From IMG/VR virus record IMGVR_UViG_3300005527_003200: a stretch of DNA of 64,000 nt. One strand, 5' to 3'. Source of the DNA: a virus (taxonomy: Duplodnaviria; Heunggongvirae; Uroviricota; Caudoviricetes). Below are positions 2,596 through 46,690 of this stretch, piece by piece (positions within the stretch are counted from its first letter, which is position 1; every line of letters begins with the position of its first letter). Position numbers and translations under genes: made by a program. Below the pieces are notes generated by a model, which ran no database searches, had not been told where the DNA came from, and saw only the letters and a list, made by a program, of their open reading frames with translations.

Positions 2596-2681
2596 TGGTA
2601 CCAGAGACGGGACTCGAACCCGTATGCCCTTGCAAGCGGCAGATTTTAAGTCTGCTGTGTATACCATTCCACCACTCTGGC
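2596..2681 (-). tRNA. tRNA-Leu (anticodon TAA), long variable arm
   Basis: A manual cloverleaf gives GCCAGAG acceptor, anticodon loop CTTAAAA, variable arm CGCTTGCAAGGGCATAC, T-arm GGGTTCGAGTCCC and an encoded CCA. Confidence 0.85.
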
Positions 2682-2699
2682 TTTGCGTTATTTAATACA

Positions 2700-2774
2700 T
2701 GGTCCGGCGTAGAGGAATCGAACCTCTATAATGACTTTAGAAGAATCATGTCCTATCCGTTGAACGAACGCCAG
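2700..2774 (-). tRNA. tRNA-Arg (anticodon TCT)
   Basis: Manual fold: the acceptor CTGGCGT pairs with ACGCCGG, the anticodon loop is CTTCTAA, the T-arm is AGAGGTTCGATTCCTCT, and CCA is encoded. Confidence 0.8.
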
Positions 2775-2779
2775 ATGTT

Positions 2780-2854
2780 TGGTGGGCCAACTTGGAATTG
2801 AACCAAGACTCGACCGATTATGAGTCGGTTGCTTTACCATTAAGCTATTGGCCC
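2780..2854 (-). tRNA. tRNA-Met (anticodon CAT; elongator Met, initiator, or lysidine-modified tRNA-Ile not resolved)
   Basis: Manual fold gives GGGCCAA acceptor, anticodon loop CTCATAA, T-arm CTTGGTTCAATTCCAAG, and an encoded CCA. Confidence 0.8.
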
Positions 2855-3287: not shown

Positions 3288-3316
3288 ATTATACAAAAAT
3301 GCTAAGTGTTTGTCAA
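3288..3316 (-). promoter_or_regulatory. Consensus sigma-70 promoter: TTGACA, 17-bp spacer, TATAAT
   Basis: The minus strand reads cgTTGACAaacacttagcatttttgTATAAT. The -10 element is 30 nt upstream of the ATG at 3258. Confidence 0.7.
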
Positions 3317-4077
3317 CGGTCTTTGTCAGTTCTTACCAATTGAATTAAGCGGTATCCAGGATCAAATTCCCACCATTTTTTGCCAAACTGTGGATCTGCG
3401 GCAGCGGCGTGATGATTGTTGTGCCAGCCCTCTCCACCAGTCAAATATCCTACCAGCAGGTTATTTGAACTTTGATCACGTGTGTCAAAATTTCTATATC
3501 CTGATGGACTGTGAGTGAGAGAGTTGGTCAGTGAACTGGCATGTTGCAACAATAGTGACGGAACCAAATAAGCATACACTACTGCATAAGGATCTATCAT
3601 GTAAACTGCCACCCCGACCAAGATAGTGTACAACCAATGATTGTAGTACATGTGCATGTGAAATTTGGATTTCACAATCTCTGGAGCATAACTTAATTTT
3701 GGAGTAGCAGGTGTGAGTCTAAATTGCACGGCTAGATAACCGTATACCGCAGGTGAGTGCGGATCATCTTTTGTGTCAGAGTGTCTATGATGCGCTCGAT
3801 GTATTGCTACCCAATACAACATTGGTAAAGTTGTGCCAGGAATAGCAATCAATGTTCCTAGATATTCAAACCATTTTGGTGCTTGAAAAGAACGATGGGT
3901 GATCAGCCGATGAACTGTTACAGTTCCGACTACCATCTTGATATAGTAGACCAACAGACATATTGCCCACTGCCATGCTTCACTGTTGAAGATAAAGTAG
4001 ACCAGGATCACATGTAGACAGGCACTGTATGCAATCATTTCGTTGTGCGAAGGCACAAACCAGTTTTTCTTTTTCAT
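3313..4077 (-). CDS. Membrane fatty-acid/lipid desaturase (histidine-box di-iron family)
   Basis: Three His boxes are present (HRLITH, HRAHHRH, HNNHH) together with multiple TM segments. Confidence 0.8.
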   Translation of the reverse strand: MKKKNWFVPSHNEMIAYSACLHVILVYFIFNSEAWQWAICLLVYYIKMVVGTVTVHRLITHRSFQAPKWFEYLGTLIAIPGTTLPMLYWVAIHRAHHRHSDTKDDPHSPAVYGYLAVQFRLTPATPKLSYAPEIVKSKFHMHMYYNHWLYTILVGVAVYMIDPYAVVYAYLVPSLLLQHASSLTNSLTHSPSGYRNFDTRDQSSNNLLVGYLTGGEGWHNNHHAAAADPQFGKKWWEFDPGYRLIQLVRTDKDR

Positions 4078-4244: not shown

Positions 4245-4537
4245 AGCCTGGAATCATAAGTGAAGGCAGCAAGATATCGCATGCTGGCACGGCTGGGAAT
4301 GTGCTGATTACAGAACCGTTGGTATGCCGCACGCCAACGCTTTTGGACAGGTGCTGGCGCATGGCAAGCAAGATAATGCAAGTGGCCAAATCTGCGCCCA
4401 ATGCTGATGTGATTGGGCTTCCAGCCTGCAGGATACCATTTGTCGCGAGTTTGCCAATTGTAGTTTACCCAGACACCCATTCGGCGTTCTTGCATGATAT
4501 ACTTTTTAGATATATCTTGTGGTCTAAATCGGTTCAT
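4241..4537 (-). CDS. Hypothetical protein (98 aa)
   Basis: It shares an ATGA overlap with the upstream SPFH gene. Orientation is consistent with the operon. Confidence 0.45.
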   Translation of the reverse strand: MNRFRPQDISKKYIMQERRMGVWVNYNWQTRDKWYPAGWKPNHISIGRRFGHLHYLACHAPAPVQKRWRAAYQRFCNQHIPSRASMRYLAAFTYDSRL

Positions 4538-5328
4538 TTTTGCATCATCAGCGCATTGAAGTTTGCAGGAACAACAATTGTTTGCACACGACCGTTCTTG
4601 ATACCTTCTGAGATATTCATCATAGCCTGCGCTTGCATGTAAGCAATTGACTGAGCACCTTGATTACTCAATGCTTGCATACGTTCTGCTTCCATCTTAG
4701 CAGTCTTAACTTCAACTTCTTTTTGTTTCAATTCATTCTTGGCACGAACCAACTCATTTGCACTCGCAACCACAGAATCTGCAGGTACAATATTCCGAAT
4801 CAACACTTGACCAACAACCAAACTACCATCAAGTTTTTCATCAGCCAAACTCTTTTGAATTTGTTCTTTAATTGCTTGTTCCATCACTTGGCGATTATCA
4901 GCCATGTCTAGTGCCTCGTACTTTCGGGCTTCTTTGTAGATGGCATTACGAGTGGTTTGAACCATATAGTTGTACATCAAGTAGATGTCGCCGTTGTGCC
5001 GAGCATGGAATGCTTGACTCTTTTGGCTATACAACTCGGCTACCTGTGCTTGATTGATGTTATAGATAACCACTGCATCAAAGTCTTTCATTGTTGAGTT
5101 ATCTTTAGCAACAGGTGTCATGTCCTCCAGTTTGACATTAACGTCCTTGATTGGGAATGTAAGAACATCACCCCAAAAGGTTTGATTAAACGAGCCAGGC
5201 ATTAATTCACCTTGCTGGACTTGTTTATCAAAGCCAACACGTACACCAACTTCACCTGTTTCGATACGAGTACAACCTGTTGCCAGCACAGCCGCGGCAA
5301 GAACGGAGAGAGTCAAAATACGTTTCAT
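4534..5328 (-). CDS. SPFH/Band-7 (prohibitin/HflK-like) lipoprotein
   Basis: A lipobox (LATGC) is followed by the SPFH-domain pattern and a coiled-coil C-terminus. Confidence 0.7.
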   Translation of the reverse strand: MKRILTLSVLAAAVLATGCTRIETGEVGVRVGFDKQVQQGELMPGSFNQTFWGDVLTFPIKDVNVKLEDMTPVAKDNSTMKDFDAVVIYNINQAQVAELYSQKSQAFHARHNGDIYLMYNYMVQTTRNAIYKEARKYEALDMADNRQVMEQAIKEQIQKSLADEKLDGSLVVGQVLIRNIVPADSVVASANELVRAKNELKQKEVEVKTAKMEAERMQALSNQGAQSIAYMQAQAMMNISEGIKNGRVQTIVVPANFNALMMQK

Positions 5329-6960: not shown

Positions 6961-7066
6961 CTTTAACTCCAAAATGTTTTTTACATTTGTGAAATGGCAT
7001 AATACGACCAAGCCATCCAATCAGTTCACCGCAATTTTGGCAACAGTATGATGGGTATTTCTTCAT
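6956..7066 (-). CDS. Micro-ORF encoding a zinc-ribbon-like peptide (about 36 aa; CCQNCG...HKC)
   Basis: This is the internal Met of track ORF 6956..7144. Its start overlaps the stop of the gene at 7063..7341. Confidence 0.35.
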   Translation of the reverse strand: MKKYPSYCCQNCGELIGWLGRIMPFHKCKKHFGVKE

Positions 7067-7341
7067 TTCAAATCGCCACGCAGGGTGTGCCACATTTTGG
7101 GATCGGTGCCCAAGTAGATGCGATACTTTTGATAATTGCGCCACTGGCTCAGTCGGTTCACACCACGCTCGACCCAGTCAAACATGGCACTGCGGAACCA
7201 CAAGGGATTCACAATGGCCACAATCAGTGCTGCCGCCACAGGCACAATCAGCACAGCCACAACCACCCAATGAAATGTCATGGCACGGTAGTAACGGCCA
7301 CCACCAGGCACCAGTTCAATTTCTTTACTCATATTTGCCAT
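7063..7341 (-). CDS. Small membrane protein (92 aa, one long TM segment)
   Basis: It contains the hydrophobic stretch WVVVAVLIVPVAAALIVAIV. Confidence 0.5.
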   Translation of the reverse strand: MANMSKEIELVPGGGRYYRAMTFHWVVVAVLIVPVAAALIVAIVNPLWFRSAMFDWVERGVNRLSQWRNYQKYRIYLGTDPKMWHTLRGDLK

Positions 7342-7742
7342 TCCTTTTTTGTTTTGCGTTTGAAAGTTGTTGGGTCAATCACTGCCGACAGGGCTTGCGT
7401 GACATCTTCCGCAGTGTCTGGGTCAGTGCTCTTTTTGAGTCCTAGTGCAACCTTTTCTTCTGCTGTGAGTTTACGCAGGGCCGCACGCCGCAGGCGCAGA
7501 CGCTCTTGTTTGCGTTCTTCCTTTTCGCGGGCCTTGCGGTCTGCTTCTTTGTGTTTAGCCCACCATTCACGCACCTCGTCATCACGGAGCAACAACAGAT
7601 CTTCAATCTTGTTGTTTTCCAGTTCAGTCATGGCCTTGCAGGCAATGCGAGCCAGCATGTCAGCACGGTCTTTGAGATCGCGATACTGCCAACTGTCAGT
7701 GGGGCTGGAATAACTGTCTGATGCATAATCTCTACAGGGCAT
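7329..7742 (-). CDS. Hypothetical basic coiled-coil protein (137 aa)
   Basis: The product is K/R/E-rich. It is operon-consistent. Confidence 0.5.
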   Translation of the reverse strand: MPCRDYASDSYSSPTDSWQYRDLKDRADMLARIACKAMTELENNKIEDLLLLRDDEVREWWAKHKEADRKAREKEERKQERLRLRRAALRKLTAEEKVALGLKKSTDPDTAEDVTQALSAVIDPTTFKRKTKKEWQI

Positions 7743-7743
7743 G

Positions 7744-8136
7744 TTACTCTCCTTGTGTCTGCAGGGCTTTCAAAAACTCCACACATGCGGCCTCGGTGCG
7801 CTTGGTCACTACCACCCGGCCACCCCAGAAGCCCACATACAGACTGCGGTGCTCCACAAACTTCACTTCACCGTCAGCACCAGTATGCTTTTGACGAGCC
7901 GCTGGCTTTGCAGGCACTGCCTTTTTTGCAGGTGCTTTAGGCACTGCGGCCACCACAGGCTTTGCTGTCACTGCCTTTGCAGGTGCAGGCACTGCAAGCG
8001 GACGATGCTCAAAGCCATGTTTCTTATCATACTTGGCAATGGCTTTTTCATCCATGCCCCATGTGGCCAGTAGTCGGCGAACTTCAGTGCCGGGCAGTTG
8101 ATTCCAGTGTATGATAGGGTCAGTCCAGTTGGTCAT
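7744..8136 (-). CDS. Hypothetical protein with an Ala/Pro/Lys-rich linker (130 aa)
   Basis: It contains AKP repeats of the form PAPAKAVTAKPVVAAVPKAPAKK. Confidence 0.5.
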   Translation of the reverse strand: MTNWTDPIIHWNQLPGTEVRRLLATWGMDEKAIAKYDKKHGFEHRPLAVPAPAKAVTAKPVVAAVPKAPAKKAVPAKPAARQKHTGADGEVKFVEHRSLYVGFWGGRVVVTKRTEAACVEFLKALQTQGE

Positions 8137-8146
8137 GTTGGGCTCC

Positions 8147-8347
8147 TTAATAAGATTGATGTGAATGTCCGATACGATACACGGGTGCGCCTGGCGTCAA
8201 ATCATTTTCCGGAGTATACACTTCCGGCAACATGATATCCGCAAACTCACCGTAGGAGTAATAACCAGACTCGGTCACTACCAAGCGAGCATCAGCGGGC
8301 AGGGCACGGAGTGCCTCAATCATTTGTGCTACAGTTATAGTGGTCAT
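8147..8347 (-). CDS. Small hypothetical protein (66 aa)
   Basis: The listed ORF was trimmed to a Met that has an AAGGAG RBS and lies directly behind a consensus promoter. Confidence 0.55.
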   Translation of the reverse strand: MTTITVAQMIEALRALPADARLVVTESGYYSYGEFADIMLPEVYTPENDLTPGAPVYRIGHSHQSY

Positions 8348-8374
8348 CTCAAGCTCCTTAGTGTCTATGTGTGT

Positions 8375-8403
8375 ATTATAGCAAATTGGGAATTTTTGGT
8401 CAA
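8375..8403 (-). promoter_or_regulatory. Sigma-70 promoter: TTGACC, 17-bp spacer, TATAAT, with a conserved ACACACATAGACA leader
   Basis: The minus strand reads gGTTGACCaaaaattcccaatttgcTATAATacacacatagacactAAGGAGcttgagATG. Confidence 0.75.
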
Positions 8404-8600
8404 CCGTGCAGAGCAGTCCAGGTTTCCCAGGGCTGATCGCGAATGTATTGTATTGCCTTAACACCACCTTTAACCCTGCAGGCATACTGCATGGCTGTGG
8501 CAAATTTGCCACGCTGACGATGTGTTTTGCGAGCTAATCCTACCGGATTGAGCTTCCATTTCCACAGCGAGTCATATTTGCCGCGAATCATCTTGTGCAT
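8400..8600 (-). CDS. Small basic hypothetical protein (66 aa)
   Basis: It has its own promoter and a GAGGAG RBS. Confidence 0.55.
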   Translation of the reverse strand: MHKMIRGKYDSLWKWKLNPVGLARKTHRQRGKFATAMQYACRVKGGVKAIQYIRDQPWETWTALHG

Positions 8601-8628
8601 GGTGGCTCCTCTGTTGTCTATGTGTGTA

Positions 8629-8657
8629 TTATAGCAAAACGGTGATTTGGTGTCAAC
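8629..8657 (-). promoter_or_regulatory. Consensus sigma-70 promoter: TTGACA, 17-bp spacer, TATAAT, with the same conserved leader
   Basis: The minus strand reads gGTTGACAccaaatcaccgttttgcTATAATacacacatagaca. The -35 element overlaps the stop codon of the upstream gene. Confidence 0.75.
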
Positions 8658-8982
8658 CGTTTTGCTTCACGCGAACGTCCGTGTTCAGCGCAGGTGCATA
8701 CTTTTGTATTAACTCGCGCTCCAACTTATGTGCGGCATCTTTGCCACGCACAATGTCCACGATAGCCACGTTCATTGCTTCAGTACCGTTTGCGCGAATT
8801 GCTTCGTACAAGTTCCAGCCTTTGTCTTCTGTGCGGCTACGGTAGATGTGCTTGTTCACACGGCTACGGAGCGACATGTTGATTGTGCGCTGGGTTTTTG
8901 CGGTAATACCAATGTAGTACTCAAATCCAATTTGGATCATGTACACTATGTGGCTGCGATCAGTACGTTTCTTTCTCATCAT
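8653..8982 (-). CDS. GIY-YIG domain protein (small, YhbQ-like, no obvious DNA-binding extension)
   Basis: It carries a VYMIQ...YYIGIT (GIY-YIG) motif plus conserved R and E residues. Its ATG lies only 6 nt downstream of the -10 hexamer. Confidence 0.65.
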
Positions 8983-8988
8983 GTGTGT

Positions 8989-9017
8989 ATTATAGCATTT
9001 TGGGCATTTTTGGTCAA
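8989..9017 (-). promoter_or_regulatory. Sigma-70 promoter: TTGACC, 17-bp spacer, TATAAT. It predicts a leaderless or near-leaderless mRNA for the GIY-YIG gene.
   Basis: The minus strand reads gGTTGACCaaaaatgcccaaaatgcTATAATacacacATGATG. Confidence 0.65.
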
Positions 9018-9045
9018 CCGAAATGCCTGTTGCAAAAATACAACA

Positions 9046-9085
9046 AAAGTACTACTTTTTTTAGCCCTAAAAGTAGTACTTTTTT
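9046..9085. promoter_or_regulatory. Perfect 15-17-bp palindrome (AAAAGTACTACTTTT / AAAAGTAGTACTTTT) between divergent transcription units; bidirectional terminator or operator
   Basis: An inverted repeat with an 8-nt loop is flanked by A/T runs on both strands. Confidence 0.5.
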
Positions 9086-9110
9086 CAGCAAAAATTGAAT
9101 ATTTGGTCAA
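9082..9110 (-). promoter_or_regulatory. Degenerate fourth copy of the promoter repeat: TTGACC -35 with a poor -10 (TGAAAA)
   Basis: It shares GGTTGACCAAA...TTTTGC with the copies at 8375, 8629 and 8989. Confidence 0.25.
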
Positions 9111-9136
9111 CCAAAGTGTGGGCTATAAGTAACAGC

Positions 9137-10210
9137 ATGGACACTGATCTTTACCACGACATTTACACTAGCGAAATTTTTGACACCAGCCAATGCATAT
9201 GGCACGAAAATAATACCATGAATTTCTTTCACAGTTTGTTGATCAAACTGGGATATGAGCCTGTGCAAGATGGACACAAAACATGGCGCCGTGGAGACCG
9301 TACTGTGGTGCTGTGTCTGGTAGACGACTACATCTCTACCACATACGACTATGACACACCAGTGGCATATCGATTTGATCGCAATACCACAGTGATCACA
9401 GACAACTATGTTACCAGTCCAACCTTGTACAAGGTGTTTCAACTGCCATCCAGTTTCTTTGGCATCTATCATTATGAACCCAAGCTGACCAATTTCAATC
9501 CCACACGCAGATTTAATTTTTCAGTCAATCGCATTGATTCCAAACGCATGTTGACCATGCTGGAAATTGCGTTGCGTTGTGAAAAGTATCCAGATGCTGA
9601 AACGTTGGACTTTATCAATTTCAACTGCTGGAGTTGGGAAGGTGACAATTCCACAGCTGAAGGATGCAATCAAAATTTCAGAGATGCCTACGAAAAACTA
9701 GAGCCACAATACAAAGCAGTGTATGGTGACACTTTTGAACGCATTGCTCAAACCATGCCATTTAAAAATCATGACATGTCAGTTGAGCAGGCACACCTCA
9801 GTGCTTATGTGAACATGGTAATTGAAACCTACTCCAGTGACAGTTCAATTGCTCTCAGCGAGAAGATATTCCGTGCATTGGTCACTCCGGCACCCTGGCA
9901 AGTGTATGCTGGCCGCCATGCAGTGGCCTATCTGGAAAGTCTAGGATTTGACACACTCAAAGACATTGTCAATCACAGTTACGATGTCATGATGGAAAAC
10001 AAAACTGCTGCCTATGGTGACAAACTGGTTGAATACATCTTTGCTGGCGCAGATACATTTACCAAACTCAGTGCTATGGATCGCACAGAACTGCGACATC
10101 GTTGCCTTACTGCCAGCAGACAAAATCAAAAGGTGCTCAAAGACATGAGTGCTCGTTGGCCTGCAGAGTTTGCCGCTTGGTTGCCGGCTGTTATAGACCA
10201 TATCAAATAA
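9137..10210 (+). CDS. Putative glycosyltransferase, GT10-like (alpha-1,3-fucosyltransferase-type C-terminal motif), paralogue A
   Basis: Its C-terminus (ETYSSD...SEKIFRAL...PWQVYAG...LGFDTLKDIVNHSYD) resembles the GT10 FEN...TEK...PVV motif. It is shared with the genes at 12398, 28080 and 49134. The listed ORF was trimmed to its first ATG. Confidence 0.5.
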   Translation: MDTDLYHDIYTSEIFDTSQCIWHENNTMNFFHSLLIKLGYEPVQDGHKTWRRGDRTVVLCLVDDYISTTYDYDTPVAYRFDRNTTVITDNYVTSPTLYKVFQLPSSFFGIYHYEPKLTNFNPTRRFNFSVNRIDSKRMLTMLEIALRCEKYPDAETLDFINFNCWSWEGDNSTAEGCNQNFRDAYEKLEPQYKAVYGDTFERIAQTMPFKNHDMSVEQAHLSAYVNMVIETYSSDSSIALSEKIFRALVTPAPWQVYAGRHAVAYLESLGFDTLKDIVNHSYDVMMENKTAAYGDKLVEYIFAGADTFTKLSAMDRTELRHRCLTASRQNQKVLKDMSARWPAEFAAWLPAVIDHIK

Positions 10211-10211
10211 C

Positions 10212-11753
10212 ATGTGTGGTGTTCTATACGTAAAAAGCACCACTGATATACCGCTAGAAAAGCACAACCAAGCTCTAGAAATTTTAAAAGATCGCGGTCC
10301 AGATTTTACCTGTTACCAACATCATGGTCGTGTGTTCTGTGCGCAAACAGTTCTGCACATCACTGGCAACACACAATTTTACAATCGACAGTCAGATGAT
10401 TTTTTTGCATTCAATGGCGAAATCTACAACTATCGCTGGTTTGGTTCCTACAGCAACGACACTGAGCTGATGTATCGTGCTGTAAAAGACGCACCAGTAA
10501 AAAAACTCAAATACTTTGAAGGACCGTGGGCGTGGGTGTATGCTCAAGGCGACCAAGTGATATATGCCACTGATCCACAAGGCGAAAGATGCCTGTACAG
10601 ATATCAAGACAACAACATACTGATTGTGAGTTCTGAGGTGGCAGCTATTTTGGTATACATCCGACCAAAATTACAAGACATTGATTACACAACCAAACAC
10701 TATCCAATTTGGCAAAACACGCCTTGGCAAGGAATTGAACGATGTGTGCCAGGTGTGATGTATGATCAGTCGGGCAACACCACAGTGATTGACAGTATCT
10801 TTTCATGGGCCAAACCCAGTAGTATTCAAACATTGGACCAGGCCTGGGAAGAATATCAACCCTTGTGGGAACGGGTAATCACTGACATGCGGCCAGAAAC
10901 ATCTTATGCCTGCACATTCAGTGGTGGGCTTGATTCTGGCGTGGTTGCAAAAAGTCTTCCACAAAGTCAGCACTATTATACCACCAACATGCTGGGCAAA
11001 GACCCAGTGAGTGAACAATCTCAACGTATGTTGGAAGGCAGTCAACGAGACAAAATCATCAACATTGGTGTTACAGAACAGCAATGGGCCGATGCATTTG
11101 AGCAAGTGTGTCGTCGCACACTGATGCCAGTTCAAAGCTACAGTTTTGTTGGCCAGTGGATAATTGCTCAACACTGCAAAGAACGTGTGTTGTTTACTGG
11201 TGTAGGCGCTGATGAACTGTTTGGTGGCTATGGCGTTTACTCACAGCTTGAATACACCACACAAACAAGTGCAAGTCCTTACAGTTCATTTGGCAATGAC
11301 ACTCACGCTCAACAACTGTGGCAACAATGTTTGCATGCACATCAAGGTCAAGCAGAGCCAGCCACTCTGTTGATGGATTATATCACTCAAATTTGTGCAA
11401 TAGACATGCGTGGCATTGACGTTTGTACCATGGCACATGGCATTGAACCACGCTCGCCATTTGTGCATCCTAAGATCATTCGGTTTGCACTTGGCCTTCC
11501 CATGCACCTGAGGCGCGGCAAACCTTTGATTCGTCGACAGTTTTTGGCCTCCTGGCCTGAAGAAATGATACTTCCCAAAAAAGGATTCACTGGACATTGC
11601 AATGATTCATTGCCTTGGATGAAATTCACTGTGCCAGATCAGGCTCGGGCACCACAGTGGAAGCAAATTGTCAAAACTGGATTTAGATATTATGCCAATC
11701 AATATCTTGATCAAACCACTCAGGACTTATCCGCACATGCGGATGTTGCTTGA
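10212..11753 (+). CDS. Asparagine-synthetase-B-like glutamine amidotransferase (class-II GATase plus PP-loop ATP pyrophosphatase)
   Basis: Cys is the first residue after the initiator Met. A PP-loop SGGLDS is present, and the C-terminal MAHGIEPRSPF matches the AsnB E.R.PFLD motif. Confidence 0.75.
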   Translation: MCGVLYVKSTTDIPLEKHNQALEILKDRGPDFTCYQHHGRVFCAQTVLHITGNTQFYNRQSDDFFAFNGEIYNYRWFGSYSNDTELMYRAVKDAPVKKLKYFEGPWAWVYAQGDQVIYATDPQGERCLYRYQDNNILIVSSEVAAILVYIRPKLQDIDYTTKHYPIWQNTPWQGIERCVPGVMYDQSGNTTVIDSIFSWAKPSSIQTLDQAWEEYQPLWERVITDMRPETSYACTFSGGLDSGVVAKSLPQSQHYYTTNMLGKDPVSEQSQRMLEGSQRDKIINIGVTEQQWADAFEQVCRRTLMPVQSYSFVGQWIIAQHCKERVLFTGVGADELFGGYGVYSQLEYTTQTSASPYSSFGNDTHAQQLWQQCLHAHQGQAEPATLLMDYITQICAIDMRGIDVCTMAHGIEPRSPFVHPKIIRFALGLPMHLRRGKPLIRRQFLASWPEEMILPKKGFTGHCNDSLPWMKFTVPDQARAPQWKQIVKTGFRYYANQYLDQTTQDLSAHADVA

Positions 11754-12399
11754 AATATTTTTCAACCCAATCCAAGCATTGTGATTCGCTAGGAGTCACT
11801 GACCTAGTGCGAGAACTGTTGAATTCATACCAGTACAACCCGTATGGTGCCTGAGAATCTGTAAATCTAAAAGTAAACAACTGTCCGGGATCTGCTCCGC
11901 ACAGTTTGGCAAATCTATCAAAAGTTGTGATTGGTTCAAAGTCTGAATACAAGTGTGCTCGACTGTGATGTGTGGTAATAAATCCTGGCACAGTTTGTAT
12001 TTCGGGCAATCGTTCTAGACATCGCAATCGTGAATCTCCATTGCCAGCAAGATATGTGCCATCACCCTGATCTAACACCAAAAATGGTTTTATAATGCCC
12101 TGTGCTCGTATGTCTCGTATCCACATGTTGAGCTTGACAAGATTGGCAATGTCATAGTGATTGCGCGGCTCAGCTAGAAACCCTGCTGGCCCATCATGAT
12201 CTAGCCACTGATTGGCCCATTCGCAAAGATCATTCAGTCGTTGGTTGGTTGAAAAGTGTCGAAATTCGCAACTGGGATTCCAGAACAAGCAATGCATGCC
12301 TTGATTTGAACTGATCTGAATGGGATCTTGTTTGCTGGGCCAGTGAAATTCCACAAGAGGATTATTCCAATACATAGATCTACTTAGTAAATAGGTCAT
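11683..12399 (-). CDS. Hypothetical protein on the opposite strand, possibly ParB/sulfiredoxin-like (GNGDSRL)
   Basis: It is a 238-codon ORF in an otherwise unassigned 640-nt gap. Its start codon overlaps the divergent start of the gene at 12398. Confidence 0.4.
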   Translation of the reverse strand: MTYLLSRSMYWNNPLVEFHWPSKQDPIQISSNQGMHCLFWNPSCEFRHFSTNQRLNDLCEWANQWLDHDGPAGFLAEPRNHYDIANLVKLNMWIRDIRAQGIIKPFLVLDQGDGTYLAGNGDSRLRCLERLPEIQTVPGFITTHHSRAHLYSDFEPITTFDRFAKLCGADPGQLFTFRFTDSQAPYGLYWYEFNSSRTRSVTPSESQCLDWVEKYFKQHPHVRISPEWFDQDIDWHNI

Positions 12400-13357
12400 G
12401 GACTATACATCTTTGTTTGCCAACACACTCTCTGGCTTGGGGTTTGATCTGCATGCAGTTTACAACTGCTTTGATCCGCCATATCGTCCAGAAACTGGTT
12501 GGCCGTTAAAGTTGCCCAACATTGAATTCAAACACAACACACTGCTGTTGTTGCATTTTCAAGATTTCATAACACCATGTCAGGGTCGCATACTTGAACT
12601 GGAACAAGTAGAACGCCACTATGGCGCCAATGCACATCGTGTGCTGGTAACTTATTGGAGTCATAATTTACAAAAATACTATCAAGGACCAGTGAACCTT
12701 ATCGAATTCAGCAATCACAACATGGCCACTGTGACTGCTATCCAAGCTCGTGAGTCACAATGGACCAATTCAATAAATGCAAAAACTTCAGCATGGCAAT
12801 GCCTCAATGGTCGCATGTGCTTGCATCGTCGACGTGCTGTGGACATCTTGCAACATTGGCCTAATGGTGTGTTAAGTTACGGCAACGACATTCCACTTGA
12901 TGCTTGGGCTTATGACACCTATCGCGGCACAGAAAACGAAGATAACTTCATGCGACTGTTGCCGGTATATGCAAAATGTCAAGTGAACATTGTGACTGAA
13001 ACACAGTATGATGAGCCGCCAGGCATTGTGAGCGAAAAAACATTGATGGCGATGATTGCACAGCAGGTACCCATTGTGATTGGTCACCAAGGTATTGTGC
13101 AAGACTGTAGAGAGCTTGGGTTTGACATGTTTGACGACCTGGTGGACACCAGCTATGATAGCATGTCCAATGACGTTCGAGTCGAACAAGCCATAATGAA
13201 AAATCAAGATCTCATACTGGGAAAAATTAACCTTGCGCCATACCAAGAGCGACTGCAAAAACAAAGAAGTTTTTTGCTTGATGAATTTATAACTGGCACA
13301 CAACAACGGTACATTCAAGACGTTGAACAGTTGGCTAAAAAACTAAGTGCGATTTAA
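12398..13357 (+). CDS. Putative glycosyltransferase, GT10-like, paralogue B
   Basis: It has the C-terminal motif NIVTETQYDE...SEKTLMAM...PIVIGHQG...LGFDMFDDLVDTSYD. Confidence 0.5.
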   Translation: MDYTSLFANTLSGLGFDLHAVYNCFDPPYRPETGWPLKLPNIEFKHNTLLLLHFQDFITPCQGRILELEQVERHYGANAHRVLVTYWSHNLQKYYQGPVNLIEFSNHNMATVTAIQARESQWTNSINAKTSAWQCLNGRMCLHRRRAVDILQHWPNGVLSYGNDIPLDAWAYDTYRGTENEDNFMRLLPVYAKCQVNIVTETQYDEPPGIVSEKTLMAMIAQQVPIVIGHQGIVQDCRELGFDMFDDLVDTSYDSMSNDVRVEQAIMKNQDLILGKINLAPYQERLQKQRSFLLDEFITGTQQRYIQDVEQLAKKLSAI

Positions 13358-13708
13358 AAACTTCAACCACTTTTCTAGATCGCCGTACATGGCCAACATC
13401 ACTGCCTGCTGACTGCCAAACAAAACAATTTGCGGATGCTTGCCAATTTTAATGTAGTAAGGGCAATCTAACTTTTTATCCAAGGTCAGTAAATGTTTGG
13501 GTTTAGCAACCAAGTCAGAAGGAGCATCAAATGCGTATGTTTCTAAGTCACAAGTACCAATTGCTGTATATCCAGCATTGGTCAGTCTGAATCCGCCGCC
13601 ATCTCTAAAGTTCATCCACCATGACTTGCAGGCTTCGTCGTAGGTCAGTTGGTCTTCCGACGGAAGACCTGTCAGTATGCGTTCGGTAATCTGTTGTTTA
13701 GTTAACAT
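13343..13708 (-). CDS. Hypothetical protein (121 aa)
   Basis: It is in operon orientation. No domain was recognised. Confidence 0.5.
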   Translation of the reverse strand: MLTKQQITERILTGLPSEDQLTYDEACKSWWMNFRDGGGFRLTNAGYTAIGTCDLETYAFDAPSDLVAKPKHLLTLDKKLDCPYYIKIGKHPQIVLFGSQQAVMLAMYGDLEKWLKFLNRT

Positions 13709-14006
13709 TGGGGTACACTTGTTCCCCTTGTGTTAACAGCATGACTGTGAATTTGTCAGTCTTGAACTGTGCATTTAATTTTTTTGCCAAATTTTTAGCA
13801 TGCCCTGGATTTGAGAAACTGACTTTTTTGTACTTGGGTCCGGGGTATTGCGTAAGCATGTTACCAGTCTTGAGATTGATTGGCTTTTGATCGTAAAAGA
13901 CCGCCCACACACCTTCAGAGGCCAATACTTGTTCGGTCTTATAGGTTTGTTTCTCAGTGTGCTCAATTAGAACTAGCGGTTTGGGTCTACTCATATTTTC
14001 TCCCAA
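13698..14006 (-). CDS. Hypothetical protein (102 aa)
   Basis: It is operon-consistent and overlaps its neighbour. Confidence 0.5.
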   Translation of the reverse strand: MGENMSRPKPLVLIEHTEKQTYKTEQVLASEGVWAVFYDQKPINLKTGNMLTQYPGPKYKKVSFSNPGHAKNLAKKLNAQFKTDKFTVMLLTQGEQVYPNVN

Positions 14007-18442: not shown

Positions 18443-19288
18443 TTATTTGCCCCATCCATTACCCCAGAGGTCCACATGCAATCGTGGGCTGTACCAATAA
18501 CCTCGTTTGAGTGCTTCGTCGGCAACGTGAATTCTATTGCCATCATACACACTCACAACACCGCCAACAGGCATCACAAAAACTGGTCCGCTAAATCCAC
18601 GGGTTCGATAGTCGTCAACTACTAGATCAAGCTCTTTGAAATCATCAATGTGACCAACAACAAACTTCAAATAGGTAACACCGTGAGTTTCGTAATCCCA
18701 AATAATGTCAGGTTTGATAGCATCTTCATACTTTTCACCACTGACACTAAGTTTAGGACTTACTGAGAATGTGATCTCGCCAAACCATTCAGACAGATAC
18801 TGTTTGAATTCTCTTGTGAGTTCTTGAGTACCATTGGTTTCAAATGTAATGTGTCGCAGTCCACGTTCGTGCAACAGATTCAACAGTTCAGGATATGCAC
18901 GTTGCCAACCTAGCAATGGCTCGCCACCTGTGATCACAAGATGCACTGAATTGCCGTTTGGTTGTTGCCAGTGGCCATTGGGCAACAGCGCAGCCATTTT
19001 GTCAACTAACTCTTGTGCTGTGTATGTGGGACTTAGATGTTTAAAGTCAGGATGCCAACTTGCATACGAATCGCATCCTGTATTAACCAACGGGAGCTCT
19101 TCAAAAGTCTTGTAGAGATGAACGCTCTTTGCGACGTCATCTGCCTCAGTGCTCTTATCACCGGGTTGGCATCCAAATCCCGAACACGTAAAGTTGCAAC
19201 CGAAGGTTCGTAAGAAGATAGAAGGAACTCCAATATAGCGTCCTTCGCCCTGAGCAGAATAAAATAGTTCACTTACTTTTAATTTCAT
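18443..19288 (-). CDS. queE: 7-carboxy-7-deazaguanine synthase QueE (radical SAM)
   Basis: The N-terminal ...SAQGEGRYIGVPSIFLRTFGCNFTCS carries the QueE-type C..C...C cluster. Confidence 0.8.
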   Translation of the reverse strand: MKLKVSELFYSAQGEGRYIGVPSIFLRTFGCNFTCSGFGCQPGDKSTEADDVAKSVHLYKTFEELPLVNTGCDSYASWHPDFKHLSPTYTAQELVDKMAALLPNGHWQQPNGNSVHLVITGGEPLLGWQRAYPELLNLLHERGLRHITFETNGTQELTREFKQYLSEWFGEITFSVSPKLSVSGEKYEDAIKPDIIWDYETHGVTYLKFVVGHIDDFKELDLVVDDYRTRGFSGPVFVMPVGGVVSVYDGNRIHVADEALKRGYWYSPRLHVDLWGNGWGK

Positions 19289-20004: not shown

Positions 20005-21987
20005 TTAGGCTGCTAGTTTTGCCCTGGCGCCAGCATCTCCGCGTTTGGCAACGTCTACCTGCGTGTCAGCGTTCAAGCATTCAACTGTGGCTTTTCCAAA
20101 ATTTCTACGTCTAGCAAAATAAAATAGTTCTAAGAAACGTGGAAAGCTCATAGTTTTATCTTCTGGAAACTCCAGTTGATATTCTCTTGGCGCATGTACA
20201 AGTTTGTGATCAAAGCTGAGATATTCCCAGATGTTGTAGTCTAATTCTAAAACCTCAGGATAAGTGTTCATAGCATCGTAAGCCACATGGTATCTGCGTT
20301 GGAATCGCATGATGTTCTCCAACAACACAGGCGGTAAATCATAACGACTCATGAACTTTTCTAACATGTCAAAGATATTGTGATTTTGTTTTTCCACATG
20401 CATGTTCAACACAGTTCTGTGTATGAGGTTCCATCCGTGAATTTCAATGCCAATCTTGGGATGATTGATTCGGCCATTGGTCATCCAACTGCGATAGTAC
20501 TCGCGAACTTCTTCTTGTTCGCGGTGGATCCATTCATGACCTTGCACGTATTCAAACAGGTCTGCATAAAACTCGCTGTAGGGCACACCCTGATACTTGA
20601 ACACCAATCGACTCAACAGTGTGCTGATGCCATTGATGTGGAAGGTATTGATAAACCATGAAAAAATATGTGCTTCCATCATGACATCAAACGGCATGTC
20701 TTTGGTGCCAGTGATAATGTCAATGGCTTCTTCAATGTGTTCGTTGGAGTATGATCCAGAAAAATAGTCTGTTACACTTTGATTGGTAATCTTAAACAAC
20801 TTCTTCTGCAACAGGTTCATTTCGGCATTTTCCAACAACTGAGCCTGGAACACCGTGAGACCAGTATGATTGCCCATTTCAAACAAAGTCCAAAAGTTTT
20901 TCTTCCAAGACTCAAGACTTTCACCAGGTAGGCCCAAGATAAGTTCAGTGTAGGTTGGAATGTTACGTTGCTCACACAGCTCAAATACTTCGTTGAGCTT
21001 GTTCATTTCCATGTTTTTGCGACGAATGTTTTCCAATACATCCAAGTCAAGACTTTGCACACTCAGCGTTAGACCTTGATTGAAGCCTCGGGCATCCAGC
21101 AATTTTTTAACAATGTCCACAACTTCTTTCTTTTGATTCTTGGCCCAGGCCACAGAGAAAGTTCTCGGAGAACCATACTTTTCTTGACATTCAATAATCT
21201 TGTCTGCAATCAAACTGTCACGTTCGGCAAACATGCCAAAGTTAGCGTCAGTAATTGATATGAAATCAAAGTTGTGCTTAGCCATCCATTCCAACTCATG
21301 GTACACACGTTCTAAACCAAACTTCTTGACCTTGTTGTATGTCAAGCTACCCCAGTCACAAAACGTACAAGCAAATGGGCAACCACGAGAAGTTTCTAGT
21401 GTGCCTTGCCACATGATGTCAGGATTTGCAGCCATTAGGTCATCAAATACACCTGCCAGATACGGGCTAGGAATATCTTCAAGAGTTTCAATGCGCTTGG
21501 CATCACCTGTGCTTATAGCTTCGCCGTCTCGATTGATCAGCAAGCCAGGTATTGACTCCCAGTCTTTGCTGTCATATGCCAGCATGAGATTTCTAAATGT
21601 GATTTCACCTTCGTAGCAAATCACAATGTCCATGAATGGTTCTTTGCGAAACAGATCTTTGTCTGTGATTGCAGGTTCGGGACCGCCAAATATGGTCAAC
21701 ACGCCAGGATTGATCTCCTTGAGCCTGCGAGCCAATGCATAGTTGAAATTGTGATTCCACACATAAGTGCTAAAAGTCACAACATCATTTTCAGCCAGTC
21801 GTTGTGCAATTGGCTCTATGTTGTCCCGGCGCCACACCCATTCAGTCACTTGCCATGCATCACGTATGCTGGGTTCCGCAACTGCATAACTCCAAATCAC
21901 ACCTGCTGAGTATGGCAGGTAGTAGGCATTGAGTTCTTTAGGACCTTGTTGGAAGTTTGGTTGTACCCAGGCAATTTTTCTTTTCAT
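20005..21987 (-). CDS. B12-binding-domain radical SAM enzyme (class B radical SAM; methyltransferase-type)
   Basis: An N-terminal B12-binding-like domain is followed by RGCPFACTFCDW (C...C..C) and a long C-terminal extension. Confidence 0.7.
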   Translation of the reverse strand: MKRKIAWVQPNFQQGPKELNAYYLPYSAGVIWSYAVAEPSIRDAWQVTEWVWRRDNIEPIAQRLAENDVVTFSTYVWNHNFNYALARRLKEINPGVLTIFGGPEPAITDKDLFRKEPFMDIVICYEGEITFRNLMLAYDSKDWESIPGLLINRDGEAISTGDAKRIETLEDIPSPYLAGVFDDLMAANPDIMWQGTLETSRGCPFACTFCDWGSLTYNKVKKFGLERVYHELEWMAKHNFDFISITDANFGMFAERDSLIADKIIECQEKYGSPRTFSVAWAKNQKKEVVDIVKKLLDARGFNQGLTLSVQSLDLDVLENIRRKNMEMNKLNEVFELCEQRNIPTYTELILGLPGESLESWKKNFWTLFEMGNHTGLTVFQAQLLENAEMNLLQKKLFKITNQSVTDYFSGSYSNEHIEEAIDIITGTKDMPFDVMMEAHIFSWFINTFHINGISTLLSRLVFKYQGVPYSEFYADLFEYVQGHEWIHREQEEVREYYRSWMTNGRINHPKIGIEIHGWNLIHRTVLNMHVEKQNHNIFDMLEKFMSRYDLPPVLLENIMRFQRRYHVAYDAMNTYPEVLELDYNIWEYLSFDHKLVHAPREYQLEFPEDKTMSFPRFLELFYFARRRNFGKATVECLNADTQVDVAKRGDAGARAKLAA

Positions 21988-22876: not shown

Positions 22877-23497
22877 TTATGCTTGATTGTCTGCAGCCAG
22901 CTTTTTCTGCAAGTGATTCAACAAGAAACCATACGCAGGCAGAATAACCAACAGACTCACAATGATCTTACTGATTGAATTGTTGGTTGCAACAATGTGC
23001 CAGTTAGCAGCCATGAACTCATTTGCGCCACCAGCAAAGGCAGTAAAGAAGAACACATAGGTATCAAAGAATGTGCTCACAATTGAACTCAATGCAGGAG
23101 CAATCCACCAAGTGGCGTACTTTTCACGAATGTATTGGAACACGTACACATCAAGCAAGTTGCTCACAAAGTATGCAACACCCGAGCCAAGACCAATGCG
23201 GAAAGCAACTGAGTCAGGAGCACCGCCCAGTTTGACCACTGCCATTGACACAATGATAGCAGGGATGAATGCCAATGCAATCACCGCACGACCAGTTTGT
23301 TTGCCTAACATTCGCACAGTCAAGTCGGTCAACACAACCACTAGTGGGAATGTGAATGCGGCTGCTGCCAATGGTGCACCAAACACTGAGAATTTGAATT
23401 GCACAATGTAGTTGCTGATAGCAATGATAATGATATGTGCCAGCATGAGCTTGTAGGCCAATGCACGGTCAACGCCACTTAAGATTCGATCTAACAT
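22877..23497 (-). CDS. YhhQ/VUT-family queuosine-precursor (preQ0/preQ1) transporter
   Basis: It has six or more TM segments and a COG1738/DUF165-like pattern with a conserved FF/Y-rich core. Confidence 0.6.
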   Translation of the reverse strand: MLDRILSGVDRALAYKLMLAHIIIIAISNYIVQFKFSVFGAPLAAAAFTFPLVVVLTDLTVRMLGKQTGRAVIALAFIPAIIVSMAVVKLGGAPDSVAFRIGLGSGVAYFVSNLLDVYVFQYIREKYATWWIAPALSSIVSTFFDTYVFFFTAFAGGANEFMAANWHIVATNNSISKIIVSLLVILPAYGFLLNHLQKKLAADNQA

Positions 23498-23514: not shown

Positions 23515-24021
23515 TTAAACGAATAGATCTTCCATCCACTCGCGATGGCCTTCTCTAAAAGCCATATTGCTCTGTGTTTCGCGCACTTCCACACGATAGC
23601 ACCAGAGACGCTCTGCTTCACCCGGTCCCCACAGGTCCGGAATGTAAACACCGTTCACATACTTGTACAGCATGTCTGCCAAGCCTTCACACCCTAAGCG
23701 TGGCAGGATTGTGAGTTTGGCCATTTTTTTCTCTTGCAAGAGCTTGTATGTCGCCAGCTCTGGATCATCTGCAGACACCAGCAAGGTATGATCAAATTGA
23801 TCTTCTAATGTCTTTTTAAGTTCTTTGAGACCGCCATAGTCAGCGGCCCAGTTACGCACATCCAGGTTGTCTGTGCCAAAGTAGAACTTCATTGAGAATG
23901 AGTAACCGTGAATTAGATTGCAGTGGCTGTCGGCACGCCATTGACGGTATGCGCAGGGAAAAGCATCATGATACTCTTTGGTGCTGGTGTACTTGTATTG
24001 TACTGGTTGATTTGTTGCCAT
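23515..24021 (-). CDS. queD: 6-carboxytetrahydropterin synthase QueD (PTPS family)
   Basis: It carries the C..H.NLIHGY zinc/catalytic motif (CxxxHGH). At 168 aa it has the typical QueD/PTPS size. Confidence 0.75.
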   Translation of the reverse strand: MATNQPVQYKYTSTKEYHDAFPCAYRQWRADSHCNLIHGYSFSMKFYFGTDNLDVRNWAADYGGLKELKKTLEDQFDHTLLVSADDPELATYKLLQEKKMAKLTILPRLGCEGLADMLYKYVNGVYIPDLWGPGEAERLWCYRVEVRETQSNMAFREGHREWMEDLFV

Positions 24022-26251: not shown

Positions 26252-26662
26252 TCATACGCAAACTTCCTCTTTGAGATATCGTTTGAGTTCTTTGTCATTG
26301 GGTTCTACAGTATAGTTCTTCTTGAAAAAAATTTCATAACTATCACTGCCGTATTTGCCAATGCCGTACAAATCGGTAGCATCATCACCATTCCAAGTCA
26401 TGTAGTCTTGACTCATTTTTTTCAATCTGGTGTATCTTACATTAGCCATACCTAATGGTGCAATAATGCTTTTTACAAAATCTTCATCGGCTGCGATCAA
26501 TGCTTCCGGCGTTGGGAACCAGTATAAAAATTCTGGCAAGGTTGTTTTTACAGATTTGCGGCCTGTTTGATTCAACATGATCACTCCAACCATGTGTTCC
26601 CATGAGTTAGAGATTTGTTGTTGAACCATCAGATCATCTCGTAATGCATGAAAAAATATCAT
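26252..26662 (-). CDS. HhH-GPD superfamily (endonuclease-III-like) DNA-glycosylase-fold protein, short form without an FeS domain
   Basis: VIMLNQTGRKSV...LYGIGKYGSDSYEIF aligns by eye to the EndoIII VLLSAQATDVSV...LPGVGRKTANVV segment. Its start overlaps the FolE stop. Confidence 0.5.
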   Translation of the reverse strand: MIFFHALRDDLMVQQQISNSWEHMVGVIMLNQTGRKSVKTTLPEFLYWFPTPEALIAADEDFVKSIIAPLGMANVRYTRLKKMSQDYMTWNGDDATDLYGIGKYGSDSYEIFFKKNYTVEPNDKELKRYLKEEVCV

Positions 26663-27351
26663 CGTGGTGCAAAGTCCTGTTGTAGTTTGATGTTGTCAAA
26701 GAATTCTTTTTTTACACTTTGGTCTGATTTAAACGCACCGTGTAAAACTGTTGTTTGGGTGAGACTAGAGTGAGCCATGATACCGCGATTCTCACAACAA
26801 CCATGGGTAGCTTGTATATAAACTGCAACATCCTTGGACCCGGTCGCGAATTCAATTTCGCGAGCAATATCCATACATAGCTCTTCTTGGAGAGTGCCTC
26901 GACGGGCACACCATTGCGCAATCCTGGTATACTTGGATAGACCAATAAGTTTGGGGCCAGCAATGATTCCAATATAAGCCACACCCGTAACAGGCTGGTG
27001 ATGATGCGAACACATGCTCTTAAGCTCTGAACGCACCACAAGCATACCTTCGTATGCTCCGTCCGTATCGTTTGGGAAAGCCGTAGCATTAGGGCTCGTC
27101 TCATAGCGACCAGCCATAATTTCATTGAAGTACATTTTTGCAAGGCGTTGCGCCGTGCCTTGTGAGTTAGGATCATTTTCCCTGTCAATTAGTAGTGTAT
27201 CGAGAACTTGTTCAAATGCTTGAGTGGCCTCCATAATCAAATGTTCACGATCTGACTCAGCAACATAATCACTGATGTTGTCACCAGCCCAGAATCTCTT
27301 GCCGTCTGCCTTCATGCGTTCGCGAAGGACTTGTGATAGATTTTTTTCCAA
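26659..27351 (-). CDS. folE: GTP cyclohydrolase I (FolE)
   Basis: It carries SMCSHHH and IQATHGCCENRGI, matching the FolE Cys/His zinc site and the H.C...RG motif. Confidence 0.8.
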   Translation of the reverse strand: MEKNLSQVLRERMKADGKRFWAGDNISDYVAESDREHLIMEATQAFEQVLDTLLIDRENDPNSQGTAQRLAKMYFNEIMAGRYETSPNATAFPNDTDGAYEGMLVVRSELKSMCSHHHQPVTGVAYIGIIAGPKLIGLSKYTRIAQWCARRGTLQEELCMDIAREIEFATGSKDVAVYIQATHGCCENRGIMAHSSLTQTTVLHGAFKSDQSVKKEFFDNIKLQQDFAPR

Positions 27352-27418: not shown

Positions 27419-28129
27419 TCAATAGATTAATTGATTTGTGACCCATCTAATTAACCTATCTGCTATAACTTGATGGCCCAGTTGATTGGGATGGCCACCA
27501 CTACTGCTAAACAATTCATGTCCTCGTTCCATACTGGTAAATTTCACTCCCAGTATGTCAGCACAAGTTACCTTGCCATTCTCATACATGTATCTAGTGT
27601 CTACTTCAGACCAAAATTTTATCTTTTGCCAGCCAGCAACAAATAGTGCATTTACCCTGGCTTCTCTGCAAATTCCTTGCACAGTCAAGATAGCAGTGTT
27701 CACAGCATAATCGTGTGCGGCATCGCTAGAAAAATACTTGTAATACAATTCGTTTAGATTGTGTTCTGTGGGATTGGCATTGGGCACAGCCACTCCGTTG
27801 GGTTGCAAATGTACCAGCCGATCATGCCAGGTCATGTGACGTTGTTGAGAAGTCAAAAACACCAATACAGTGTACCTATTGTCTGGATTTTCTCTTTCAG
27901 TGCGGTACTTGTCTAAAAAGCCTTTGAGTTGCAACACTGTGTGAGGAATGCTGGATCCAGGTACTGCAACATTATCCACACTGGTCACATTCAAACGGTC
28001 ACCAATGATCTGGCCAAATGATTTTTCGCCTGGCTCAAGTTCTGCACCATATGCCCAACTGTCTCCTAAAATAGCAAGTCTATGAATCATTCTTATCAAA
28101 CTCTGTTTCCACGCGGCTGTACCAAGCAT
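27419..28129 (-). CDS. SGNH/GDSL-like hydrolase paralogue 3 (canonical GDSW block I)
   Basis: It has ILGDSWAYG at the N-terminus and GGHPNQLGH (DxxH-type) near the C-terminus. Confidence 0.6.
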   Translation of the reverse strand: MLGTAAWKQSLIRMIHRLAILGDSWAYGAELEPGEKSFGQIIGDRLNVTSVDNVAVPGSSIPHTVLQLKGFLDKYRTERENPDNRYTVLVFLTSQQRHMTWHDRLVHLQPNGVAVPNANPTEHNLNELYYKYFSSDAAHDYAVNTAILTVQGICREARVNALFVAGWQKIKFWSEVDTRYMYENGKVTCADILGVKFTSMERGHELFSSSGGHPNQLGHQVIADRLIRWVTNQLIY

Positions 28130-46253: not shown

Positions 46254-46690
46254 GCTCTTTCTTCTTTCAGGTAACTTCTCAGCATCCAGCCATGCTTTTG
46301 ATGAGCATCGATGCGTTCAGCAATGAAGTTAGCAATACCTTGTTGGTTTTCTTCAGTTGCTACTTGGAAGACTTGATTGAGAAGATCCAACATTTGGCCG
46401 TTGTTGGCCAAGAGTTCTTCTAGCATGAGTCGGGCACGTGGAATTTTTGTTTGGCCCTGTATTTTTGTTAATTCTACAAATCGTTCAAAACTACCAGGAG
46501 CATAGTCGCCCAGGGCACGTATGTATTCTGCTGTGGGATCTGTAGCACCATAAACATCGTCATGGATTGCGTCAAAGAAAGCGTGAAGCTGGCCAAAGTC
46601 TGGGCCTTCAACGTTCCAGTGGAACTGTTTGGCTTTGAGAGCAAAAGCCTCCTCAGTTGCCAGGAGTGTTTTTAAAGCGTCCGCTAACAT
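46250..46690 (-). CDS. Dps/ferritin-like DNA-protection protein
   Basis: It carries the Dps ferroxidase-site pattern KQFHWNVEGPDFGQLHAFFD. The ORF was trimmed to MLADALK. Confidence 0.7.
   Translation of the reverse strand: MLADALKTLLATEEAFALKAKQFHWNVEGPDFGQLHAFFDAIHDDVYGATDPTAEYIRALGDYAPGSFERFVELTKIQGQTKIPRARLMLEELLANNGQMLDLLNQVFQVATEENQQGIANFIAERIDAHQKHGWMLRSYLKEERA

Follow-up and report, generated by a model that had tools for sequence, protein, structure and literature searches.

What does a phage amidate with an enzyme of the asparagine synthetase family? The question is raised by the gene for a 513-amino-acid AsnB-like protein in virus record IMGVR_UViG_3300005527_003200 (Caudoviricetes), of which a stretch of 64 kb, referred to here as the window, was analysed. 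The window also encodes FolE, QueD, QueE and a DpdA-like transglycosylase, and a preliminary description of it had proposed that the AsnB-like protein replaces QueC by amidating 7-carboxy-7-deazaguanine (CDG). We tentatively favour another substrate. The most likely one is the carboxylate of a sugar or glycoconjugate, because the gene stands in a conserved module with two glycosyltransferases (GTs); glutamine-dependent amidation of such a carboxylate, in a module that also includes a ParB-like protein, is the explanation we rank first, although we would not give it an even chance. The gene and its signature motif are as follows.

10212–11753, plus strand: AsnB-family glutamine amidotransferase/PP-loop adenylating enzyme, 513 amino acids (Pfam, NCBIfam, residue alignment).
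10920–10937, plus strand: PP-loop motif SGGLDS, the ATP pyrophosphatase signature, residues 237–242, invariant in the family.

The open reading frame (ORF) begins MCGV, and its ATG lies 1 nt past the stop codon of the upstream GT gene. Pfam matched Asn_synthase (2.6e-23, residues 224–459) and GATase_7 (3.8e-8), the N-terminal nucleophile (Ntn) glutaminase domain covering approximately residues 1–200; the Met-Cys start and the class-II glutaminase domain described previously are thus confirmed. When the window is translated in all six frames, the motif SGGxD[ST] occurs a single time, inside this ORF, in agreement with the earlier statement that the protein is the only PP-loop enzyme present. 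The C-terminal E.R.PF motif (here GIEPRSPF) is likewise of the AsnB type and not of the QueC type. The best NCBIfam model was asn_synth_AEB (TIGR01536), with 137.7 bits (5.9e-40) against a cut-off of 267.1, and PRK09431 scored 77.2 bits against a cut-off of 499.

To place these scores at the level of residues, 28 family sequences were aligned and compared with E. coli AsnB. In the glutaminase domain, Cys2 (28 of 28 members), N68-G69-E70 and D83 are invariant, corresponding to E. coli Cys1, Asn74, Gly75, Glu76 and Asp98, and the position of E. coli Arg49 is Val in all 28. The catalytic Cys and the oxyanion residues are thus conserved. We take Arg49, Asn74, Gly75, Glu76 and Asp98 to form the glutamine site of AsnB, with Arg49 binding the glutamine carboxylate. 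In the synthetase domain, the PP-loop, Asp351, Glu352, Tyr357, Lys429 and Lys449 (E. coli numbering) are kept, the two lysines invariantly. The position of Glu348 is V, A, L or I in the family and Val in the window protein, and positions 376, 384 and 387 (Lys, Asp and Arg in E. coli) are variable, the alignment being less certain across 376–387. Presumably Glu348 is catalytic in AsnB, K376, D384 and R387 bind aspartate, and K429 and K449 are the ATP/pyrophosphate lysines. Overall, the phage protein shares with AsnB and ASNS the two-domain architecture, the Cys after Met, NGEIYN, D98, SGGLDS, DE..GGY, E.R.PF and the lysines 429 and 449, but it is only ~24% identical, ~40 residues shorter, phage-only and altered at Arg49 and Glu348. 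The substrate is therefore predicted to be a carboxylate other than aspartate.

Homologues at 46–71% identity make up over 120 clusters (90% identity threshold) and 166 IMG/VR loci, all on contigs of one jumbo-phage lineage with genomes of ~330–360 kb. They carry the JGI label asparagine synthase, and PHROGs places the window protein in phrog_16728, of unknown function. We estimate that the window covers roughly a fifth of a ~350-kb jumbo-phage genome, because its polymerase relatives and the homologous contigs are of that size: its family-B DNA polymerase shares 51% identity with the enzyme of Sinorhizobium phage Phosso and 42–47% with those of Atu_ph07, Vibrio phage 2.275.O and other jumbo phages of 355–378 kb (Cronobacter GAP32, Pectobacterium CBB), and homologous contigs reach 329–362 kb. 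A megablast of window positions 7000–14000 against phage genomes gave no match. By tblastn against cultured phages, eight weak matches to the protein were obtained, the best being the 'ASNS' gene of Synechococcus phage S-SCSM2R (26% identity), whose neighbours are uninformative and whose downstream gene is not ParB-like.

Cellular relatives were sought among bacteria and archaea, each species being represented by a single genome, with the best 80 matches retained. The closest one, on a Pelagibacteraceae single-cell contig, was 27% identical (E = 2e-66), and the remaining matches had E >= 1e-24. Clustering with host asparagine synthetases, which the preliminary description had named as a reason to doubt its own proposal, was thus not seen, and the gene was not recently acquired from a host. 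Taken by its sequence, the protein is a predicted adenylating amidotransferase of the AsnB superfamily and belongs to a new, phage-restricted branch in which no member has been characterised.

The neighbouring genes were also examined. The block around the AsnB-like gene contains the following features.

8728–9132, plus strand: small conserved ORF, 134 amino acids, first in the plus-strand block (tblastn matches in 52 of 85 loci).
9137–10210, plus strand: GT-B-fold glycosyltransferase-like protein, 357 amino acids, from ATG 9137 (the mechanically called ORF starts at TTG 9095); structure prediction.
11683–12399, minus strand: ParB/Srx N-terminal-domain-like protein, 238 amino acids (Pfam ParB_N, 0.003).
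12398–13357, plus strand: GT10-like glycosyltransferase paralogue with a fucosyltransferase-type motif, 319 amino acids (profile match).

The 134-amino-acid ORF had no Pfam or PHROG match. For the upstream GT-like gene, a profile search against PDB sequences found no match, and its GT-B assignment comes from the predicted structure. The downstream GT profile matched the plant enzyme FucTA (9s6a) at the motif E..VTEK..aG.iPvv.G (E = 0.02), and the C-terminal part of the protein is similar to the upstream GT (E = 9e-7). The ParB-like gene is convergent with the AsnB-like gene, their 3' ends overlapping by 71 nt. Its family profile matched the Noc/ParB N-terminal domain in the PDB at E = 0.0056, a weak domain call; an assignment to DpdB/DGQHR was considered and dropped, there being no NCBIfam match.

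The conservation of this arrangement was scored in 85 related loci, each extending at most 10 kb in either direction. The ParB-like gene was present in all 85, the upstream GT in 81 and the downstream GT in 70. In loci L083, L085 and L086 the four module genes stand together, and within ±10 kb no MazG-like, 5'-3' exonuclease, DUF6071, cytidylyltransferase or QueE gene was detected, the first four of these being the genes that lie between the module and QueE in the window. In L004 and loci like it, the GT gene of the upstream type lies on the downstream side. Since the four genes are kept together in the former loci and rearranged in the latter, they behave as a unit. In the sister lineage L179–L184, the downstream GT is kept, the AsnB-like, ParB-like and upstream GT genes are absent, and there is no QueE in the region seen.

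The two GTs belong to a set of four paralogous GT-like genes in the window, the others lying at 28080–29081 (minus strand) and 49134–50261 (plus strand). They have in common the motif ET..SEK..GFD..D..SYD and are recognised by no Pfam model, and one of them adjoins the DegT aminotransferase and epimerase genes; Pfam gave no consistent match for 52 members of this GT-like family. The sugar genes of the window comprise these four paralogues, the DegT aminotransferase, an NAD epimerase/dehydratase, two cytidylyltransferases, an FkbM methyltransferase and a PIG-L deacetylase. Moreover, the closest cellular homologue of the AsnB-like protein stands in a sugar-nucleotide cluster, which supports a sugar substrate: its neighbours encode a CMP-sugar cytidylyltransferase, a HAD phosphatase, a PhyH dioxygenase, a sugar epimerase, an APS kinase, a nucleotidyltransferase and an ABC exporter.

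By the chemistry of the family, the N-terminal Cys of the Ntn domain would hydrolyse glutamine and the ammonia would pass to the C-terminal PP-loop domain, where the substrate carboxylate would be activated as an acyl-adenylate, yielding a carboxamide, AMP and pyrophosphate. The enzyme would act as one component of the four-gene module (GT-B, AsnB-like, ParB-like and GT10-like), converting a sugar carboxylate to the amide as WbpS and WbqG do on uronic acids, and the amide could serve a glycan or hypermodification built with the many sugar genes of the phage, on an acceptor that may be DNA, the virion or the host envelope. There is precedent in the TIGR03108 group (WbpS, WbqG and PGN_1234), AsnB-like proteins that are encoded beside GT and sugar-nucleotide genes and convert a sugar carboxylate to the amide; WbpS (PGN_1234) is needed for uronamide formation (PMC7468200).

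Several observations weigh against a sugar substrate. No uronic-acid-forming dehydrogenase was found in the window, and a UDP-sugar-dehydrogenase-like gene occurs in only ~12 of the 85 loci. The WbpS-type model TIGR03108 scored 45.3 bits against a cut-off of 816.9. The replacement of Arg49 by Val throughout the family means that glutaminase activity is not assured. Finally, the WbpS/WbqG systems have no ParB-like partner; an ordinary sugar pathway would leave this invariant partner without a role, and its presence is rather a pointer to DNA. Because of it, DNA as the acceptor of the glycan is a real possibility.

The alternative raised by the preliminary description starts from the deazaguanine genes of the window, which are as follows.

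18443–19288, minus strand: QueE, 7-carboxy-7-deazaguanine synthase (PHROG 2076, 5e-55).
22877–23497, minus strand: YhhQ-family preQ0/preQ1 transporter (NCBIfam PRK11212, 4.7e-49; TIGR00697, 102 bits against a 51-bit cut-off; Pfam Vut_1).
23515–24021, minus strand: QueD, 6-carboxytetrahydropterin synthase (Pfam PTPS, 1.6e-14; PHROG 2389, 1e-35).
26659–27351, minus strand: FolE, GTP cyclohydrolase I (Pfam, 2.8e-38; NCBIfam, 6e-41).
35791–37329, minus strand: TGT-fold, DpdA-like transglycosylase, 512 amino acids (motifs, profile, AlphaFold model, neighbourhood).

The gene set reported earlier was therefore largely correct: FolE, QueD and QueE stand, DpdA stands as a DpdA-like protein with the fold of the tRNA-guanine transglycosylases (TGT), and the YhhQ transporter had been overlooked. 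The absence of QueC from the window was also borne out, as PF06508 matched no called gene and E. coli QueC found nothing by tblastn and phmmer (best E = 0.06). The que genes are on the other strand, 6.7–25 kb from the AsnB-like gene. The YhhQ gene directly adjoins QueD, and in Vibrio phage 2.275.O it stands between QueF and QueC, so that the phage may salvage deazaguanine precursors.

Every related locus that reaches far enough has a QueE. That of the window matched five NCBIfam QueE models (1e-10 to 3e-14), none of them with a score reaching the cut-off, and it has an odd Cys spacing, in which a long insertion separates CNFTC from the next Cys. Loci L070–L073, at one time taken for a QueE-less exception, carry a different, canonical CxxxCxxC QueE at the same position (e.g., L071:18393–19268, minus strand), which looks like an in-place replacement preserving CDG synthesis. 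Between QueE and YhhQ lies a gene for a B12-binding radical-SAM C-methyltransferase of the KedN5 family (20005–21987, minus strand; 258 bits), which is found next to QueE in ~15 related loci and might introduce a further modification into the deazaguanine base or into a sugar. An HhH-GPD DNA-glycosylase-like gene (26252–26662, minus strand) overlaps the end of FolE, and phage PA5oct likewise has an Endonuclease III-like protein (EST35_0283).

The 512-amino-acid protein had no match in Pfam, NCBIfam, PHROGs or PDB sequences, and its predicted TGT fold is supported by motifs, profile, structure and neighbourhood together. It contains DSGGFQ, LD.P, FLNVLQG, GWAMGG, HFLG and ISFDC in the order seen in TGT. 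A profile of 41 sequences aligned with E. coli Tgt by hhalign at 87% probability (E = 3.7e-6, 179 columns). The AlphaFold model (pLDDT 88.6) retrieved TGT 6yry (E = 5e-7) and ArcTGT (~1e-4) by Foldseek, the only strong PDB matches. D100 and D297 are invariant in the 41 diverse homologues and align with the two aspartates that we take to be catalytic in TGT. In Vibrio phage 2.275.O, the homologue is one gene away from a QueF-YhhQ-QueC-Ntn hydrolase-FolE cluster.

By the absence of model matches, this is an undescribed subfamily as far as its sequence tells, DpdA1–4 not having been compared directly. The family, annotated 'hypothetical', is 78–94% conserved, with more than 120 clusters in the lineage and 965 clusters at 50% identity overall. 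Homologues occur at L170:11995–13617 (PA5oct EST35_0316), L171:11989–13638 (Phosso) and L089:12217–14007 (Vibrio phage 2.275.O).

PA5oct was read over 275.8 of its 286.8 kb (96%; all but 200001–210990 and 236281–236783). FolE, QueE, the DpdA-like gene and two genes resembling QueD are present; QueC did not turn up in the part read, and the AsnB-like, ParB-like and GT module genes are missing. From this gene content, a QueC-less set needs no replacement. The sole PP-loop protein in the part read (L174:40607–41218, EST35_0433) is a 203-amino-acid TilS-like N-terminal domain beside a tRNA cluster; it was considered as a hidden QueC and dropped, as it has TilS motifs only and no similarity to QueC. 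The DNA of PA5oct resists restriction enzymes in a pattern suggesting modified G, and the study that lists its QueE and PTPS names no transglycosylase (PMC12191111).

Vibrio phage 2.275.O has an ordinary QueC and a separate Ntn protein, with no AsnB-like gene. When IMG/VR was scanned with a QueC profile, none of the best 80 loci (±10 kb) was on a contig bearing the AsnB-like gene; a scan seeded with the exonuclease gave only 8 loci. Among the best 80, those nearest the Vibrio-phage QueC belong to another phage group, with longest contigs of ~164 kb and compact QueE-QueD-FolE...QueC clusters. The QueD and FolE of the window are 75–85% identical to those of this group (L091, L103–L105; up to 85% for QueD and 83% for FolE), but the polymerases are very different, at 28–31% identity. 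Close que genes on distant polymerase backgrounds suggest that these genes recently passed between phage lineages present in the same samples.

Could the AsnB-like enzyme nevertheless act on CDG? Taking the free base and the DNA-borne form together, we consider this doubtful. The QueC gap in the window lends itself to two versions of the idea. In one, which we judge unlikely, the DpdA-like enzyme would insert CDG into DNA, and the AsnB-like and ParB-like proteins would convert the DNA-borne CDG (dCDG) to its 7-amido form, bypassing QueC much as CmoY acts on a base already in DNA. FolE, QueD, QueE and the TGT-fold enzyme would provide the substrate, and a phage DpdA is able to insert CDG into the DNA of a delta-queC host, that is, without QueC (PMC10516641, Table 2). 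CmoY, a phage AsnB homologue, ligates an amine, glycine, to the carboxylate of 5-carboxymethylcytosine in DNA, and contigs with CmoX often carry ParBc proteins; for a large cluster of glutaminase-bearing ligases on such contigs, the use of ammonia is predicted (PMC12783734). The presence of the ParB-like gene in every locus fits such a scheme, as does the joint lack of AsnB-like, ParB-like and visible QueE genes in L179–L184. However, the module adjoins no que gene and also occurs away from the QueE block, PA5oct does without the AsnB-like gene, both flanking GTs are left without explanation, the ParB-like assignment is weak (E = 0.003–0.006) and similarity to CmoY is not detectable beyond the superfamily. 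Somewhat more improbable is the fuller scheme in which the two proteins form DNA-borne amido-deazaguanine (dADG) after insertion, independently of QueC, and the GT-B enzymes perhaps then glycosylate that base. The other version, the form that was first proposed and more improbable again, has the enzyme amidate free CDG with glutamine to the amido base (ADG), replacing the first half-reaction of QueC, after which the transglycosylase would insert ADG. The chemistry is plausible, the AsnB-like protein is the only PP-loop enzyme of the window, and QueE, in its two types, is retained wherever it can be seen; since in 2.275.O QueC is accompanied by a separate Ntn protein, this phage group does have a solution that combines Ntn and PP-loop functions. 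Both QueC and the AsnB-like protein are PP-loop ATP pyrophosphatases that activate a carboxylate, and Gat-QueC also has an N-terminal class-II glutaminase, but the synthetase domain here is PF00733 and not PF06508, and profile searches against both families gave no Pfam or NCBIfam QueC match at E <= 1, which upholds the earlier view that this is not the Gat-QueC fusion. Moreover, the gene does not cluster with que genes, and its conserved partners are GTs and a ParB-like protein. YhhQ transports preQ0/preQ1, and with the phage YhhQ the host's own QueC could supply preQ0 (PMC6884629). PA5oct has neither the AsnB-like gene nor, in the part read, QueC, and the QueC negative for the present phage covers the window, ~20% of the genome. 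No publication assigning an AsnB-type enzyme to deazaguanine synthesis was found in the literature.

Two further explanations are far less probable than these. An auxiliary metabolic gene for an ordinary asparagine synthetase would agree with the best NCBIfam model and the JGI label, but the score is about half of the equivalog cut-off, Glu348 is replaced by variable hydrophobic residues, the putative aspartate-binding positions are not conserved, human ASNS matches only at E = 2e-6, and the family is phage-restricted and tied to a fixed module; we regard it as very improbable. We give even less credit to a glutamine-dependent ligase of the CmoY type whose substrate would be 5-carboxymethylcytosine, with the CmoA and CmoX that produce it encoded in another part of the genome. 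CmoY of Synechococcus phage S-B43 and the ligase cluster A0A7T0Q3R0 do share with the phage protein the AsnB-superfamily domain and ParBc-type neighbours, and a subgroup, the large cluster on CmoX contigs, keeps the glutaminase (PMC12783734). CmoY itself, however, lacks a glutaminase domain and uses glycine, and its three genes are adjacent in S-B43, whereas the AsnB-like locus has no cmoA or cmoX within ±10 kb in the 85 loci. The window has no C5-methyltransferase (no PF00145 match, and no PPC motif in a real ORF), and a search with E. coli CmoA (E <= 1) found nothing in either the window or the 85 loci. With CmoA and CmoX absent from both, the enzyme is not part of a CmoA/CmoX/CmoY system.

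Other parts of the window were also annotated. It carries a permuted, two-piece tmRNA (1428–1909 and 2596–2854, minus strand; Rfam RF04321, 115 bits against a gathering score of 47 bits) with the tag peptide ANDEKFLMAA according to ARAGORN, and beside it tRNA-Leu(taa), tRNA-Arg(tct) and tRNA-Met(cat). Host-like cargo includes a Gram-negative porin (434–1324), a fatty-acid desaturase (3313–4077), a Band 7/SPFH protein (4534–5328), a Dps/ferritin-like protein (46250–46750) and a ClpB-like AAA+ protein (62491–63957), all on the minus strand; on related contigs, the solute-binding proteins TctC and DctP are encoded. A 1389-amino-acid protein (54983–59152, minus strand) has an Amidoligase_2 domain in its centre (3e-8).

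Returning to amidation of a sugar or glycoconjugate carboxylate, the AsnB-like gene would, if this reading is true, mark a glycan or DNA-glycan pathway that is encoded by the phage and includes, unusually, a ParB-like protein. If CDG or dCDG were the substrate instead, it would represent a new route to amido-deazaguanine DNA and, next to CmoY, a second case in which an AsnB-type enzyme modifies the bases of DNA. The DpdA-like enzyme, a by-product of this analysis, is maybe of more immediate use: it is found in PA5oct-like, Phosso-like and related jumbo phages, and it is a candidate for the missing transglycosylase step in PA5oct.

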